Source: a candidate division FCPU426 bacterium
GTDB taxonomy: Bacteria > Oederibacteriota > Muellerivitia > Muellerivitales > Muellerivitaceae
Reading direction: 5' to 3'
DNA: 64,000 nucleotides
Assembly: GCA_963771075.1 (NCBI GenBank)
Contig: CAVYSE010000003.1
Coordinates: 192,001 to 256,000, forward strand
Positions 1 to 12,369 of this stretch are shown here, one piece after another. Under the pieces are notes generated by a model. It saw only the letters and a list, made by a program, of their open reading frames with translations. It was not told the DNA's origin and did not search any database. Made by a program: the position numbers and the translations under genes. How positions within the stretch are numbered: position 1 is the stretch's first letter; every line of letters starts with the position of its first letter.

Positions 1-159
1 CTTTGTTTCTCCCACGCATTCCTCAAAGCATCGCGAATTGCGGTAAACCATTCCCTTTCTATCTCATCCGGATTACGTTCCACGGTGTAATCCTGAAGCA
101 TCTCGTGAAAATGGCCTTCAAGAACGGCCCAATACAAAGAAATCGAAGGTAACTGTTTA
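1..159 (-). pseudogene. cas8e: C-terminal part of type I-E Cas8e (Cse1/CasA), separated from the rest of the gene by an IS; runs off the window edge
   Basis: Manual translation of the minus strand gives (I)KQLPSISLYWAVLEGHFHEMLQDYTVERNPDEIEREWFTAIRDALRNAWEKQ, typical of a Cas8e C-terminus. It joins in frame to ...DVKNF at 720 once 160-719 is removed. Confidence 0.85.
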
Positions 160-719
160 ATGAAGCTCTCCCCGGGCTAAAGCCCGGGGTTTCTGCCCTT
201 CGGCATACTCTGGTCACGCTGTTGCTCGCGGATATACTTACGAATCATTTCTTCTTGCACCGTCCCAATACTTTCCGCAAAGTAGCCGTCCGCCCAAAAA
301 CTATCACCCCACAAAAACTCTTCCAGTTCTGGAAACTCCCGCCTTATTTTGATACTCGTCCCACCTTTCAAAACTTGTACTACTTTTGCCACGCTCACCC
401 TTGGTTCAACTTGAATCAGCATATGGACATGGTCCCGTTGAATATTCAACTCACGAATTACCCACCGGTTGACGTGGGCTGCTTCACGAAATAGTTCGTC
501 TAAGCGAACAACCACTTTGCCCAGTAGAATTCGTTTCCTATACTTGGGTATCCAAACCAAGTGATACAACAGTCGGTGCTTGGTATGTGCTCCAGTCCAA
601 TAGTTTCCCATCACCAGAGCATGCCATAACCCCTGGCCTGCGGACCGACAAAATCAGTCGGCCCTCCGGGCAGCCATTCATCCCCAGGCTTAAAAGCCTG
701 GGGTTTTCTGGCAGTTTTG
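160..719 (-). mobile_element. IS200/IS605-family insertion sequence (tnpA only, 560 bp)
   Basis: Subterminal hairpins CCCCAGGCTTAAAAGCCTGGGG (682-703) and CCCCGGGCTAAAGCCCGGGG (170-189). On the minus strand the target TTTAT is at 724-720 and the right end is TTCAT at 164-160. Guide tetranucleotides AAAA and GAAA lie just 5' of the hairpins. No target duplication. Confidence 0.92.
177..614 (-). CDS. tnpA: IS200/IS605 family HUH (Y1) transposase TnpA
   Basis: YHLVWIPKYRK motif, HUH motif DHVHML, LKG..S, FW..GYF, catalytic Tyr in IRKYIREQ. Confidence 0.95.
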   Translation of the reverse strand: MMGNYWTGAHTKHRLLYHLVWIPKYRKRILLGKVVVRLDELFREAAHVNRWVIRELNIQRDHVHMLIQVEPRVSVAKVVQVLKGGTSIKIRREFPELEEFLWGDSFWADGYFAESIGTVQEEMIRKYIREQQRDQSMPKGRNPGL

Positions 720-1963
720 ATAAAATTTTTCACGTCTTCTTCCCTGACTTTTCGGTTGCCATGTGCCAGCGATGCTCGCGCAATAGAACAACAAGCACCC
801 CAAAGCGACCCTTGGGCATCCTCAGCTAGTTGTAGGTATCTTTGAATATCAGAACGGATGTAAACATTTCCTCTTAACGCCTCTGGCAAAGTGAATCGTT
901 CCATACGCCAGAATTCCAGGTTGGCGGATGGGGGCTCATTTTTAAGCCCAAGCACCAATACTGTTAATGGATATTTTCCGGACTTTTTGGTTTTGTAAAG
1001 TTGGATTGCATTCTCCATTACGAGCGGCGCTTTTTCACCTTCACCACCAGGTAGCAAAGAATAAAAACTCCTCCAAAAATCCTTCCTTTCAGAAAATTGA
1101 TTTGGAAGCCAACCTTTCTTGTCCGATTTTCGATAAACAACCATTGGATCCCATTGTCCGGATGGATTCTCAAAACCTTCGCCAGCTATAAATCTCACCT
1201 TTGATACACTTTGTGTTGTTTCGGGTTCCAACAACATAATTCTTGGTTGCCAAGTATATAAATCAGCAAAACCGTTGGCCGACCGCTTAGGCCGGGGACG
1301 GTTTTGAAAATATCGAATTTGTCTTTGGGGCCGCTCCCATTGCGGCAAGTCTTCCTCAATCACGCCTTTCTTTTGCCAAATCAAACAAAAGCAAAGAGTT
1401 TCACCGAGATTAATTCCTATTGGGATACACATAACAGCGTTTGGATTTGGGGATGTGTAATATCCACTTCCTCCACTTACTGAGAAACTCATTGTAGAAA
1501 TAATCCATTTGGCACATTCACTCGGTGAACGGCTACTGGGAAATTTTACGTCGGTATGATCAAAAAGGACTTTATTAGACCTCGAATTGAATTCGGCTGT
1601 TAATTTTGTCCATGGTTCGATTTCTTCTATTGAGATTTTAGGGTGTTGACCAAAAGGAAATTTTTCATCGAACAGAAAGAATCGATCTCTCCATTCTTTG
1701 AGATAGGACCGAATCTTTTTTTCTGGAAACCCTTCCTTGAAAAATGCTTTCGCTTGTTCTATGTCCGTCGGTCCCATCAGTGCGCGATAAAGCACCGCCA
1801 ATAAAAAACGGTGAAGGGCCGCCGTCACCGAAGGCGAAGGGTCTTCTATGACCGCAATTTCTTTGGCCCTTAACAAGGTTTCCTGGATTCCGAGTTCGTC
1901 GCGCTTACCATCCAAAAAGCGCACCGGAATCCAGGGTTCATCAATCAGATTAAATTGACTCAT
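611..1963 (-). CDS. cas8e: Type I-E CRISPR-associated Cas8e (Cse1/CasA), IS-truncated; true cas8e sequence is 720-1963 and the last ~35 codons read into the IS
   Basis: N-terminal FNLIDEPWIPV, LHRFLLAVLYRAL, FFLFD..PFGQ, DLYTWQPR; lies downstream of cas3. Confidence 0.92.
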   Translation of the reverse strand: MSQFNLIDEPWIPVRFLDGKRDELGIQETLLRAKEIAVIEDPSPSVTAALHRFLLAVLYRALMGPTDIEQAKAFFKEGFPEKKIRSYLKEWRDRFFLFDEKFPFGQHPKISIEEIEPWTKLTAEFNSRSNKVLFDHTDVKFPSSRSPSECAKWIISTMSFSVSGGSGYYTSPNPNAVMCIPIGINLGETLCFCLIWQKKGVIEEDLPQWERPQRQIRYFQNRPRPKRSANGFADLYTWQPRIMLLEPETTQSVSKVRFIAGEGFENPSGQWDPMVVYRKSDKKGWLPNQFSERKDFWRSFYSLLPGGEGEKAPLVMENAIQLYKTKKSGKYPLTVLVLGLKNEPPSANLEFWRMERFTLPEALRGNVYIRSDIQRYLQLAEDAQGSLWGACCSIARASLAHGNRKVREEDVKNFIKTARKPQAFKPGDEWLPGGPTDFVGPQARGYGMLW

Positions 1964-2835
1964 GAAACTCCCTCATTCTTTCCCCTTCTCCCCTTCGGCA
2001 ATCCCTTCACTTTCCCCAACTTTTTCTCGTTACCTTTCACCCGCCGCTCTAATTTCTTGACGTCCTCCTCCGGCGGCAAAGCTTCGGGTTGGATGCCCCT
2101 TTTCCCCAGCATTTCCCTGACACTCCGGTTGTTCTGGACATGCTCATCGGTTATGGGCGGCTCACCCCGCAAGTCCTTCTGCTTGACGTTGTGGTTGGTC
2201 ATTTCGGCGGCCAGGTTCTTGGCCGCCAAAGTCACCGTGGGTAGAAAGTCGGCGAGCGGGCGGTTGGAGGGTACGGCCAGCCGGTCTTTCATGTCCTGGG
2301 TGGCATGGCCCCCAAAAAGGGCGGCGTCACCCTTGGAACGGATGCGGCCAAACCCCTGGCCGTCCACGCCCCGCTCATAGATGTTCTTCGAAAGCTCCGT
2401 TTCGGACTCGCTCAGCTTCCTGCGGGCATCCAAGCGTTCGCGCAGATGAATGCGTTCCTCAAGTATTTCTTGTTTGCGAGTCTGGACCGCAAAATAAGCC
2501 TGGGCAAAGGCGATAGATGGTTTGCGCGGATCGCCATTCTGGGCGATCAGGTAACAGGCATAACGGGTGAGCATAATGTCGTCAATCTCACGTTTCGCGC
2601 CAGACCCGACCGGGACCATTTTGCTGACGTCAGCAAAATGGTCGGCCACATTTTGACCGGCCTTGGAACATGAGGTTTTAGCCTTTTCGACAACTTCAAG
2701 AAAATTACGCCATTGGACGTATCCCAGTTCATCCATTAAATCCCTGGCATACCAAAATTCCACATCGGCGTCAGGCAGGGTGTTCGCCATAGCGTCGAAT
2801 TTGCTTTTCAACCGGACAACCAGGCTTCTATCCAT
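1960..2835 (-). CDS. dinD: DNA damage-inducible protein D-like (BRO-N domain)
   Basis: EFWYARDLMDELGY..WRNF, DHFADVSKMV, LTRYACYLIAQNGDPRK, QAYFAVQTR, RSKGD.ALFGG, RPLADFLPT. Start placed at ATG 2835 (AGGAGAG RBS), overlapping the cas3 stop. Confidence 0.88.
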   Translation of the reverse strand: MDRSLVVRLKSKFDAMANTLPDADVEFWYARDLMDELGYVQWRNFLEVVEKAKTSCSKAGQNVADHFADVSKMVPVGSGAKREIDDIMLTRYACYLIAQNGDPRKPSIAFAQAYFAVQTRKQEILEERIHLRERLDARRKLSESETELSKNIYERGVDGQGFGRIRSKGDAALFGGHATQDMKDRLAVPSNRPLADFLPTVTLAAKNLAAEMTNHNVKQKDLRGEPPITDEHVQNNRSVREMLGKRGIQPEALPPEEDVKKLERRVKGNEKKLGKVKGLPKGRRGKNEGVS

Positions 2836-5503
2836 TAACTCTCTCCTTTGCTCCATAAACCAACCCCAATTCCCCATCCAACTGAACGGAGGTGTCTTCG
2901 ATCCATCGGTTGTTCTTATCCAAAACCAATGGGATGCAATTTCTTAGTAAAGACGATTTCTTCCACCCGTCCGGCACACCTTTTTCCCGCAGGCACTTTA
3001 AGACTATCGCCCGTGAAAGCGACATGGATCGACCCGTTAAAGCCTTTGCCTTGGCGGTATCGGGCTTTTCCCCGGGCTGAAAATCATCCGCAGGAAAAAC
3101 CGGGATCACTGTCACGGATGGTTTTCCCAGGCGGGTTTGGGCGACAAGGGTTGGGTGCAAACCCGGTTCATCCTCATCGGCCCTGATATAACGCGCCGGA
3201 TCATTCCAAGAGGCATCATCCGGAAAACCGATGAAAGCCTGATGCGCCTGGTTTCTGAGAGCGTAATCATTGCCCTCTCCCTTTTCCTCGGCCGCCAACA
3301 ACCTTTCTCCCAAATCCTCAACATCCGCCAGGCCGTCATAAACGTCCCTGACCAACTTATCAATCTCATCGGGTAGGCTTATTGAATTGCGTCCTTTCAG
3401 CAAGTTCCAAGTGCGAAGCAATAGATCCTCCCGATAAACCGCTTTCCACCAAAGCGGACCCGCGAAGGAAGGCGGCTTCTCGCCTCCAAGCCCGGTCACA
3501 TAAAGAAAAGGCTCAGAAACGGGCCTGTGTTCCCTGGAATGGCGCCAAAGGCGCCCGGCCCGTTGAAGGACAAGATCGATGGGGGCCAAATCCGTGACCA
3601 TAACGTCGAAATCCAGGTCAAGGCTTTGTTCAGCCACCTGGGTAGCGATGAGGAATTTGCGTCCCTCCCGGGTTGCGTTCTTCCCGAATAGTTCCAAGGC
3701 CGATTCCTCCCGTGCCTGCCGCCGGTCGGCGGGATAACGGGCATGGAACAAATAAATTTCGGTGCCATCCGGCAGGCGCTTGCCGACTCGTGCTCCGTTA
3801 CGCATCAAAGGTTCGCCATGTGGAAGGGCATGGTAAAAATCTTGGGACCGTTGGACCGTGTTGGCGAGAAACAATCCCCTTCCCTCTTTCGGCAGTCCTC
3901 TTTCCAGGCATTCCCTGACGGAAGCAATATCAGGGGCAACGCCGCGAACCGCGACATTCCTGCGGCGCGAGGGATCGTTTTCAAAGTGTCGTTGTTTCAT
4001 TGAACTTTGCTTGAAAATGGATAGACGTGGATATTCCGCTTCAATTTCAGGAAAATCCGCGCCGACTTGTTGCGCGAGTTTCCGCCGGAAAGCCGGTGGC
4101 AGGGTGGCGCTAAGCAGGATGACCGATGAACCCATGGCCAAAAGCCATTGGATCAGGTGTAAGAGAAGGGTGCCCGTGTAAGCATCGTAGGCGTGGATTT
4201 CATCGAAAACCACGACGCGGTTGGCCAACCCCCAAAGTCGCATGAAGTAATGCCATACGGGCAGGATGGTCATCAGCGCTTGGTCCACCGTACCCACGCC
4301 GTATTCCGAAAGAAGCGCAGTTTTCTTGTGGGTGAACCATTCCCCGGCCCGCACTGAACCATCCCCTTGTTGGTCATAAACTCGGGACAATCTGAGTTTT
4401 TCAAAAGCTTCGTTTTGCTTGGCCGATCCATGGACAAGCTGGAGGTCCAGGGTTCTTCCCGGATTCATGGAGTTCAGGAAATCCAACGTGCGAAGAAACA
4501 TGGCATTGCCGGTTGCCTTGGTCGGCAAGGCAATATAGAGGCCGCGATGCCCGATGGATCTTTGAAGCTCCAAATGGGCGTAAAACGCCGCTTCGGTCTT
4601 CCCCTCACCCATCGGGGCTTCCACCAACAACACGCAAGGTTCCTTGATCCCCTTGATTTCGTCCGCAACTGCTTCCTGTAAAGGTCTCGGGGCGAATCCT
4701 TGGATATATCCAAAAACATCTCCAAGCGGCCTTCTGGACGCGGCCAAGGGTTGCCGTGAAAACCAACCGATCGAATCCAATACGCCATCTGCCAGTTTTT
4801 TTCGGCTAATCCACCATTTTTCCAAGTCTTCGCAATCCTCCGGTGTCCCGAACTTGAAATGGTTTTCGTCCGATCCGATCCAATCGGTAAAGCTGGTCAA
4901 GCCGGAGAGCAACATGAAATCGGGTCCCGACAAATTGGTTTTGGTGGGTGTTTTTGAGGGTTTCAGGACGGAACATAAGGCCTCAAAAATTTCCCGGCGG
5001 GCTTCGGTCCAATCCGGGCCGCCCAAGGCATGGCGGTTACCCATCAAATTTTCCAAAGTATTCGGGCTTGCACGTAAGCCGTGGTGGCAACCGACGGCAT
5101 CCGCAGCCAAATCGGCTATGTCCTCGGACCAACCACGTTCTTGTAAAAACTCGGTCAAAGCAATTTGGCTTGCAAAGGCGTGATTGAACTTTGAATCCGG
5201 GATTCGTGGAGGGGTCAGTTTATTCTGTGAAAGCAAAGCATTGGCGCCATCCCACTTCGATTGGAAACCAGGGGTGGCCTTTCCCAAATCATGGCATGCA
5301 ATGAGAAGCAGTAGCCAAGGTTTGGCTACCTCCCATGGAAGGCCGGTTATTTCGGCCATACGCAGGCGTGTCGCTTCCGGTTCCCGCTGGAGAACGGCGT
5401 CGGCACATGAAGCCACGTCCAATAAATGCAGAATGAGGGGATGCCAGGAAGGGATGCCTTGGTCAGCCGTTTTGGCCCACAAATGAAAAAAACTCTTAGC
5501 CAT
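2828..5503 (-). CDS. cas3: CRISPR-associated helicase/nuclease Cas3 (HD + SF2 helicase)
   Basis: LWAK, HLLDV, HDLGK HD motifs; APMGEGKTE Walker A, DEIH, LSATLP, QRAGRLWRH. Confidence 0.97.
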   Translation of the reverse strand: MAKSFFHLWAKTADQGIPSWHPLILHLLDVASCADAVLQREPEATRLRMAEITGLPWEVAKPWLLLLIACHDLGKATPGFQSKWDGANALLSQNKLTPPRIPDSKFNHAFASQIALTEFLQERGWSEDIADLAADAVGCHHGLRASPNTLENLMGNRHALGGPDWTEARREIFEALCSVLKPSKTPTKTNLSGPDFMLLSGLTSFTDWIGSDENHFKFGTPEDCEDLEKWWISRKKLADGVLDSIGWFSRQPLAASRRPLGDVFGYIQGFAPRPLQEAVADEIKGIKEPCVLLVEAPMGEGKTEAAFYAHLELQRSIGHRGLYIALPTKATGNAMFLRTLDFLNSMNPGRTLDLQLVHGSAKQNEAFEKLRLSRVYDQQGDGSVRAGEWFTHKKTALLSEYGVGTVDQALMTILPVWHYFMRLWGLANRVVVFDEIHAYDAYTGTLLLHLIQWLLAMGSSVILLSATLPPAFRRKLAQQVGADFPEIEAEYPRLSIFKQSSMKQRHFENDPSRRRNVAVRGVAPDIASVRECLERGLPKEGRGLFLANTVQRSQDFYHALPHGEPLMRNGARVGKRLPDGTEIYLFHARYPADRRQAREESALELFGKNATREGRKFLIATQVAEQSLDLDFDVMVTDLAPIDLVLQRAGRLWRHSREHRPVSEPFLYVTGLGGEKPPSFAGPLWWKAVYREDLLLRTWNLLKGRNSISLPDEIDKLVRDVYDGLADVEDLGERLLAAEEKGEGNDYALRNQAHQAFIGFPDDASWNDPARYIRADEDEPGLHPTLVAQTRLGKPSVTVIPVFPADDFQPGEKPDTAKAKALTGRSMSLSRAIVLKCLREKGVPDGWKKSSLLRNCIPLVLDKNNRWIEDTSVQLDGELGLVYGAKERVNG

Positions 5504-9874: not shown

Positions 9875-12369
9875 ATGAAATACCTTTGGCCATTGGCCTT
9901 TTTAGCCTTGATTTTCCCAGTCTTGGGAATTGCCTCCGATTTGACTCCCGCGGAAACGGATGCGCGGGCCGAAACGATCTTGAAGAAAATGACCCTCGAG
10001 GAAAAGATCGACTACATCGGGGGCTACAACGGTTTCTACGTCCGGGCAATGCCCAAACTGGGTTTGCCAGCCCTCAAGATGTCCGACGGGCCCATCGGGG
10101 TCCGTAATTACGGGCCCTCGACCGCCTATGCCGCCGGAATCGCCCTGGCGGCTTCCTGGAACACGGACTTGGCCCATCGGGTGGGCGGGATGATCGGCCA
10201 TGAAGCCCGGGCCCGGGGCGTTCATTTCATGCTGGGCCCCGGCCTGAACATCTACCGGGCTCCCCTGTGCTCGCGTAATTTCGAATATTTCGGGGAGGAC
10301 CCCTTCCTCGCCTCGCGCATGGCCGTGAATTACGTGGAAGGCATGCAAGAACAGGGCGTCAGCGCCACCGTCAAACATTTCATGGGCAACAACTCCGAAT
10401 ATGACCGCCACAACACCAGCTCCGACATGGACGACCGCACCATGCGTGAGATCTACCTGCCCGCCTTCGAGGCCGCGGTCAAGGAAGCCCACGTGGGGGC
10501 CATCATGAACTCCTACAACCTCATCAACGGCGTCCACGCCACCCAGAACGATTTCCTGAACAACCAGTTGGCCAAGAAAGAATGGGGTTTTGACGGAATC
10601 ATCATGTCGGATTGGAGCGCCACCTATGACGGCGTCGCCGCGGCCAACGCCGGGCTGGACCTGGAAATGCCCTCCGCCAAGTTCATGAACAAGGAAACCC
10701 TGCTACCGGCCATTAAGGACGGTAAGGTCTCGGAAGCCACCCTCGACGACAAGGTGCGCCGGATCCTCCGGACCGCCATTCGATTCGGCTGGCTGGACCG
10801 GGACCAAACCGACCCGGGTTTTCCCCTGTTTAACGAAAAGGGCCGTGACCTGGCCTTGGAATCCGCGGAAGAAAGCATGGTGCTCCTGAAAAACGAGAAC
10901 AGCCTCCTTCCCCTTGCGGCCGATAAGGTCAAAACCCTCGCGGTCATCGGCCCGGACGCCTATCCGGCCATTCCGGTCGGGGGGGGAGCGCCAAGGTGGT
11001 TCCCTTTCAGGCCACCAGCTTTCTGGAAGGACTGAGCCATTGGCTTTCCGGGAAGGGCGTGGTCACCTACAACCGGGGCCTGACCCCCATGGGCGAGATC
11101 TACGACGCGACCCAATTTACGGCCGACGCGAAGGGCAGCCAGCCCGGCCTTAAAGGCGAGTATTTCCCTAACGCCGATTGGGCCGGTGAACCCGCCCTGA
11201 TCCGCCAGGACAATCATGTCAATTTTTCCTGGGATAATTCCAACCGCTGGCCCACCGGCGGTACCTATCCCAATTATTCCGCCCGCTGGACCGGTTACTT
11301 CACCCCCGCCGCCAGCGGCCAATACCGCGTGGCGGTTTCCTCCTTCGGGAACAACCTCTTCCGCCTTTACCTGGACGGAAAGCTCGTGGTGGACCGCGAA
11401 AAGCAAAACCTCCCCTTCGCCCGAAAGGAGGTCACCCTGCGGGGCGGAAAGGCCTGCGCGGTCAAATTGGAATATTCCCAGCGCGATTACAAAGCCATGA
11501 TGAACCTGGGTATCTGCCAGGCCGGCAAGTTGATCGACCCGGCGGTCCGGTCCATCGCCTCATCCGCGGACGCGGTGGTCGTTTGCGTGGGGTTTGACAC
11601 CGGCAGCGAGGCGGAGAGTTTCGACCGGACCTTCCAATTGCCGGAGGGACAAAACGAGCTGATCAACGCCGTCCGGGCGGCGAACCCGAACACGGTCGTG
11701 GTCATCACTTCGGGCGGGGGCGTGGACATGGCGAAATGGATCGACCGGATCCCGGCGGTCCTGGAAGCCTGGTACCCGGGCGAGGAGGGAGGCACGGCCT
11801 TGGCGAAAATATTGTTCGGGGAGGTCAACCCCTCCGGCAAATTGCCCGCCACCTTCGAACGCCGTTGGGAAGACAGCGCGGTTCATGACAGTTATTACGC
11901 GGACGCCGATAAACACGCGCGCTATTCGGAAGGGGTATTCCTCGGCTACCGCCACTTCGATAAAACCGGGTTGAAACCCCTCTTCCCATTTGGTTTTGGC
12001 TTGTCCTACACCCGGTTCAAATATTCGAATCTTTCTTGCACGCCTTCCGAAACAAAGGCGGATGGGCCGGTCACGGTTTCTTTTGATTTAACCAACATCG
12101 GCGACCGGGAGGGCGAAGAAACAGCCGAGGTCTATGTGGGCGACCGCCATTCCCCCCTGCCCCGGCCGGTCAAGGAGTTGAAGGGCTTTGCCAAGGTGGA
12201 CCTGAAGCCGGGCGAGACCAAACGCCTTTCGGTGATCCTCAACCAGCGTTCCTTCGCTTACTACGACGAAAAATCGAAAGGGTGGACGGTCACGCCGGGT
12301 GAATTTAATATCGGGGTCGGATCATCCTCCCAAAACATCGAGCTCAAGGGTAAAGTGTCGCTTAACTAA
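9875..12369 (+). pseudogene. Secreted GH3 beta-glucosidase (GH3 N + PA14 + GH3 C + FnIII-like), split by a frameshift in a G8 run at 10979-10986
   Basis: MTLEEK, SDGPIGVR, RNFEYFGEDP, KHF, MSDW, VLLKNE in frame 1; AWYPGEEGG, NPSGKLP, EGVFLGYRHFD, PFGFGLSYT, ELKGFAKV in frame 2. One extra G restores PVGGGSAKVVPF. Confidence 0.9.

Follow-up and report, generated by a model that had tools for sequence, protein, structure and literature searches.

Elements of the IS200/IS605 type move by a peel-and-paste mechanism that is tied to the lagging-strand template (PMC5027513). For the tnpA-only element ISDra2, excision occurs at ~2.6e-3 per cell, whereas a reporter gene is hit by transposition at an overall rate of 3.8e-10, which places the rates for the two directions ~seven orders of magnitude apart, and excision is ~tenfold higher after UV or gamma rays (PMC2806898). 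When TnpA acts without TnpB the donor site loses the element, and it is TnpB or IscB that returns such elements (bioRxiv 2023.03.14.532601). Knockouts of cas genes by insertion sequences are already known and are usually regarded as permanent: 28 curated and 163 predicted natural insertions, from 20 IS families and 57 genera, have been collected (PMC10359306), and IS256, which is also responsible for phase variation of ica, knocks out csm/cas6 genes of S. epidermidis under plasmid selection (PMC3784566). In 2013 the same study speculated that alternating IS insertion and excision might regulate CRISPR immunity. A literature search, most subscription papers being beyond its reach, found no report of a cas gene from which an IS200/IS605 element excises, and PMC3119797 and bioRxiv 2023.04.27.538605 contributed nothing specific.

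The locus described here carries a 560-bp tnpA-only IS200/IS605 element inside the type I-E gene cas8e (window 160-719, minus strand), the window being the whole stretch of 64,000 nucleotides that was analysed (G000:C3:192001-256000). To our knowledge, there is no cultured strain of the species.

The element and its ends

The source genome (G000) holds three copies of the element, 100% identical and in unrelated flanks: one in cas8e (C3:192160-192719, the window copy), one inside a PDC-S73 gene (C7:207265-207824) and one upstream of a Thr/Pro-rich gene (C18:273907-274466). Because three identical copies have different flanks, the element ends are fixed without any model. All three have TTTAT just before the element and TCAT as its last bases, and none has a target duplication; the 560-base skip found in environmental contigs is equally clean. 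At cas8e the target word TTTAT lies at 720..724, outside the element, and the right cleavage word TCAT, with which relatives of the element likewise end, at 160..163 (both minus strand). The pentamer is the target word at 6/6 element sites known in the species and also at 8/8 full-length relatives of the element, aligned from base 2, a count that leaves out three G027 copies with a different or missing left end.

The sole gene within the 560 bp is tnpA (177..614, minus strand), which encodes a Y1 HUH transposase of 145 aa from a GTG at 614, with an in-frame ATG at 611-609; the product matches NF033573 (144.3 bits, cut-off 55) and PF01797, and the HVH motif is present. Neither tnpB nor iscB is found in the element, a genome-wide search with the TnpB domain PF07282 gave no match in the source genome (96.7% complete), and the element has no match in the plasmid collection. 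On the basis of its sequence, the element is classed as a new tnpA-only member of IS200/IS605.

Folding with DNA parameters places a hairpin at each end, at 682..703 on the left and 170..189 on the right, and each is preceded directly on its 5' side by a putative guide, AAAA at 704..707 and GAAA at 190..193 (all minus strand). Under the IS608-type rule for pairing between guide and cleavage word, AAAA pairs with TTAT and GAAA with TCAT. The guide match alone is weak evidence, the words being A-rich and of low complexity. Both end hairpins are kept in relatives of the element at 80-82% identity, and the left guide is shifted in one of them (L117). Two short, internally deleted derivatives, L120 (G001) and L121 (G024), keep both ends and have no tnpA. 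A terminator search on the cas strand gave none at either end hairpin and two weak ones within the element, and GC skew, considered for lagging-strand orientation, was uninformative, its signs being mixed across five sites.

A preliminary description made from the window had already placed a tnpA-only element of this length at these positions, with exact ends, an intact transposase gene and matching guides. The three identical copies and the NF033573 match bear this out, and the pairing holds, with the refinement that the target word is a pentamer.

Interruption of cas8e in a type I-E locus

The insertion breaks the 507-codon cas8e after codon 415, leaving a 5' part of codons 1-415 at 720..1963 (minus strand; TIGR02547 152 bits; T. 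thermophilus CasA E 1e-51) and a 3' part of codons 416-507 at 1..159, continuing to G000:C3:191880 on the same strand. Scripted removal of 160-719 yields an open 507-aa frame that reads ...DVKNFIKQLPSISLYW... and ends at G000:C3:191880, which lies 120 bases outside the window on its left, so that the restored frame predicted in the preliminary description was obtained; the same 560-base skip exists in DNA from two environmental runs. The closest 16 intact Cas8e relatives that were read out have 503-532 aa, 15 of them within 503-513. Both cas8e pieces match in 36 of 83 related loci and are contiguous, in frame and stop-free in 35 of those 36.

In its broken form, cas8e is read as a 450-aa fusion frame (611-1963), composed of 415 Cas8e codons and 35 from the element, the stop of which overlaps the ATG of tnpA. 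This stop-start overlap could link the production of TnpA to the cas operon. It is missing in all three related element types and its chance expectation is ~one in six, and on the sequences compared it is best read as chance. That host translation is coupled to tnpA as a conserved feature was rejected, since the arrangement is absent from the related element types.

Residue 415 of Cas8e aligns with residue 411 of an intact relative, the model of which has a pLDDT of 89 and a TM score of 0.85 to T. thermophilus CasA. Helices 415-434, 441-467 and 472-496 of this modelled relative all lie after the break, and the sole invariant column of a 29-row alignment falls within the same part. The C-terminal four-helix bundle of Cas8e contacts Cas11 and flanks the Cas3 site (PMC5965380). 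As judged from the model, the truncation would therefore take away most of the C-terminal helical bundle, and with it the Cas11 contact and part of the Cas3 landing site. Given the predicted loss of most of the bundle, a loss of CRISPR interference is likely, and interference is likely to be disabled in the lineage of the source genome.

Read leftwards, the locus comprises cas3, a DinD-family gene, cas8e with the element, cas11, cas7, cas5 and cas6e, followed by a PDC-S02/PD-DExK-like gene, a small HTH gene, cas1e, cas2e, a leader and 44 repeats. The eight cas genes (cas3, cas8e, cas11, cas7, cas5, cas6e, cas1e and cas2e) are all above their family cut-offs and only the cas8e frame is split. 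The intact cas3 (2828..5503, minus strand), with HD and helicase domains, encodes the sole Cas3 above cut-off in the genome. The DinD-family gene (1960..2877, minus strand; NF008573 362.6 bits, cut-off 242) sits within the cas operon and overlaps both cas3 and cas8e. A second cas1 lies on another contig (G000:C1:44697-45656). As regards a second interference system, a search that covered Cas9 and Cas12 only through the TnpB domain gave that single Cas3 above cut-off and no RAMP-family match in the source genome.

The array is made up of 44 repeats of 29 bp with spacers of ~32 nt, and spacer 35 of 43, the ninth from the leader, contains an IS30 of 1,055 bp flanked by a TAA duplication (G000:C3:183946-185000). 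By inference, the 34 distal spacers could be cut off by this insertion. A second IS30 copy (C27:41712-42766) differs from the array copy by one base. Inactivating lesions across the downstream cas genes had been named in the preliminary description as a sign of simple decay: the neighbouring cas genes are open and carry no further lesion, and the array is broken by IS30, so that the sign is present in part.

Alleles in environmental DNA and in relatives

Six of 18 public runs, none of the 18 recorded as RNA, were compared (X1-X6), as contigs only, and the results hold for the pieces listed; run depths were low, and rare variants are lost from contigs. Two of the six (X1 and X2, from two studies) contain the exact IS-free cas8e allele, the joint 18159>18720 lying on single contigs of 627 nt and 240 nt in which no other letter differs. 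None of the pieces listed from the six runs bridges the filled cas8e junction and none holds the circle junction; X3-X6 list no joint at the cas8e site, which proves nothing on the allele there. The preliminary description had envisaged CRISPR-off and CRISPR-on alleles held in one population, with the donor joint and the circle junction as their traces. Both alleles do occur in nature, filled in the source genome and empty in X1 and X2, and the IS-free joint is there; a shared population did not follow, and the circle junction was not among the listed pieces. The direction of change is not readable from the alleles, because the product of scarless excision is identical to a site that was never hit.

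In three runs, loose ends place the element at further TTTAT words, each of which is unoccupied in the source genome: C10:10457-10461 in X1, C9:126481-126485 in X3, and C10:4178-4182 or its twin on C17 in X5. Given these different sites across runs, the element is mobile and its sites vary between populations. The site in X3 (C9:126481) falls between pilin-like and pilM-like genes, named by eye, that in X1 (C10:10457) within a 1,144-aa Thr/Pro-rich frame, and the C18 copy precedes a further Thr/Pro-rich gene; among the six sites of the element, surface genes thus recur. The IS30 shows similar behaviour: in X1 its flanks match neither site of the source genome, and in both X1 and X2 it has the base of the C27 copy, not that of the array copy.

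X2, which has the empty allele, shares spacer 40, the fourth from the leader, and so this array lineage is present in a run with the empty allele, if on separate contigs; spacer 40 in the source genome has three bases that X2 lacks. The canonical type I-E PAM is AAG. For spacers 37 and 42 (L001:11123-11154 and 11432-11463), AAG stands on the 5' side of the match, read along the crRNA strand, in run contigs, the target of spacer 42 being found in X1, X5 and X6 and that of spacer 37 in X5 and X6, both within longer non-array sequence. The presence of these targets indicates that the system acquired spacers against elements still present in the runs. Exact matches to spacers 42 and 37 were absent from the viral_contigs collection. 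The phage collection gave one weak match, at 74%, which was taken as chance.

Among 163 cas8e-relative loci (1.74 Mb), none contains the transposase or the element. This survey favoured long matches to residues 1-415, over which its members are at most ~60% identical, and because long matches were favoured, copies broken earlier in the gene rank lower in it. Recurrent insertion into cas8e was accordingly not seen in these loci or in the listed pieces of the six runs, a sample that covers few strains of the species. The homologous codon has TTTAT in 3/55 cas8e relatives. Close kin gave a cas8e match in 3/60 relatives, the best at 53% and none of the same genus, and for that reason no sister genome shows the insertion site.

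Origin and fate of the insertion

The locus is probably best explained as a recent, likely revertible knockout of cas8e by a mobile element in an IS-rich lineage, and is unlikely to represent an evolved switch. The tnpA-only element would have inserted, likely recently, after TTTAT in cas8e and cut the gene at codon 415, likely disabling interference. By analogy with the family, TnpA would cut the top strand, in single-stranded form, at TTAT and TCAT, the element would be released as a circle and the donor site would be resealed precisely, more often after DNA damage. A change from OFF to ON by precise excision is therefore expected on the behaviour of related elements; a route from ON to OFF appears to be missing, to judge from the lack of TnpB, the 10,786 TTTAT sites in the genome and the absence of the element from all 163 loci. 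Given that there is no TnpB to return the element and that there are ~10,800 target words, reversion would act as a one-way ratchet to CRISPR-on. The filled allele would then be a transient state, with dispensable defence and surface genes collecting insertions of many families.

The genome is indeed rich in mobile DNA: 15 repeat families picked by hand, some of which are not insertion sequences, account for 71 near-identical copies. In a loose test, 30 other copies split a frame of at least 200 aa, and of the 20 that were scanned, from six transposase families, four split frames that are defence-like at E 1e-8: PDC-S01 by IS110, HsdM (a match below cut-off) by a RAYT-like Y1 element, GmrSD by IS256 and a PDC-S37/DUF4011 helicase by IS4. 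Among the remaining scanned frames are those of a TonB receptor and of two NHL-repeat proteins. In addition, the C7 copy of the present element splits a 776-aa Mrr/nSTAND3 gene, which matches PDC-S73, a candidate defence system, and lies in DNA of 31% GC (G000:C7:206094-208984), bringing the defence-like genes split by mobile elements to six including cas8e, five besides. There are 17 further Y1_Tnp matches in the genome, mostly in frames of ~317 aa (e.g. C15:1646-2674); these RAYT-like elements appear mobile, since near-identical 1-kb families exist and one interrupts hsdM. A reverse-transcriptase-like frame, recognised by eye, is carried by a 2-kb element (G000:C3:171335-173323) of which there are ten near-identical copies, with three of these clustered on C5.

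Two observations count against the knockout as a passing accident: the assembly consensus is the filled allele, though the element should excise, and two of the three copies in the source genome lie in defence genes. With 27 of the TTTAT words inside interference genes, the chance of at least one of three copies falling there is 0.75%, and the 14-kb CRISPR locus has taken two IS hits versus 0.23 expected (P for two or more, 0.022); both figures were calculated after the fact and take no account of purging from essential genes, and they lean to selection for weaker defence. Such selection is the main rival and is still alive, if on balance unlikely: the CRISPR-off allele would have been favoured in the lineage, for example by keeping a useful plasmid or island targeted by the array, with IS30 as a second step of loss. 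The two hits, the six split defence-like genes, the filled consensus and the published cases in which cas genes were knocked out by an IS when a plasmid was selected for (PMC3784566, PMC10359306) all speak for it. Against it, every other cas frame is intact, and none of the 42 intact spacers matches the assembly at up to five mismatches, nor does the split spacer 35 at up to three, blast giving no full-length spacer match in the source genome beyond the array; at 96.7% completeness, however, the assembly could lack a targeted plasmid. The same result gives no support to self-targeting as the cause of the knockout, which the preliminary description had offered as an alternative, as no spacer, intact or split, matches the host assembly. 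A filled allele created by misassembly around a three-copy repeat is extremely improbable. The filled junction is seen in the source genome only, the listed pieces of the six runs never bridging it, and the three extra bases of spacer 40 relative to X2 hint at base errors. However, the element follows TTTAT exactly, its two ends are whole and not one base has been gained or lost, in the middle of a 440-kb contig, and obedience to the target rule argues against a misjoin, which would have no reason to obey it.

An evolved, stress-triggered bet-hedging device, in which cas8e retains the element until replication stress or operon induction provides single-stranded DNA and TnpA for it to leave, is a reading of low probability. 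Filled and empty alleles both exist, the empty-allele run X2 shares a spacer with the source genome, AAG-flanked targets of spacers 37 and 42 are present in three runs, the DinD-family gene precedes cas8e, the stop of the fusion frame overlaps the ATG of tnpA, and damage raises the excision of ISDra2 (PMC2806898). Nevertheless, such a switch would have no route back to OFF, recurs in none of the 163 loci, in which the target word is not conserved, and leans on a stop-start overlap that the three related element types do not have and that chance would give about once in six; the filled allele and the circle junction are both missing among the listed contigs of the six runs, which drop rare variants. 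Of the reversible immunity switch put forward in the preliminary description, an idea that the 2013 speculation had anticipated (PMC3784566), the intact transposase and the exact ends stand and the return to OFF does not. A more specific proposal, held to be just as doubtful, is a self-repairing knockout in which induction of dinD-cas drives ribosomes through the truncated cas8e onto the tnpA start, making the excision enzyme under the same stress. If this were true, the lineage would live CRISPR-off and open to useful DNA, with damage or phage attack releasing CRISPR-on revertants, and the same element would toggle further defence and surface genes across the population.

As it stands, the preferred reading is that of an ordinary recent insertion, the value of which lies in its setting: a scarless element, an otherwise complete type I-E system, both alleles in field DNA and spacer targets in the runs together make a clean natural substrate on which to measure the return of immunity by excision. 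The element resembles IS608, ISDra2 and ISGst in its Y1 TnpA, its subterminal hairpins, the lack of a duplication and its insertion 3' of an AT-rich word (PMC5027513, PMC2806898, bioRxiv 2023.03.14.532601), and its TTTAT is the motif given for GstTnpB2 too (bioRxiv 2023.03.14.532601). Unlike the IS605 subgroup, which has tnpA and tnpB, it is without tnpB or iscB, in a genome in which no TnpB was found.

The IS30 in spacer 35 resembles ISC1359 in a plasmid-matching spacer of S. solfataricus (PMC4390879), with the difference that spacer 35 has no target found in the source genome. Among the collected natural insertions are cases like the present one, in which a cas gene is broken by an insertion sequence while the rest of the locus is complete, and other defence genes are hit as well. 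The curated cases were, however, chosen by target duplications, which this element does not make, and the main text of that study is without the terms IS200, IS605 or 'excision', though IS200/IS605 may still be among its 20 families (PMC10359306). The IS256 knockouts of S. epidermidis consist of many independent insertions selected in the laboratory, whereas here there is one site, an element of a scarless family, and both alleles in field DNA (PMC3784566).
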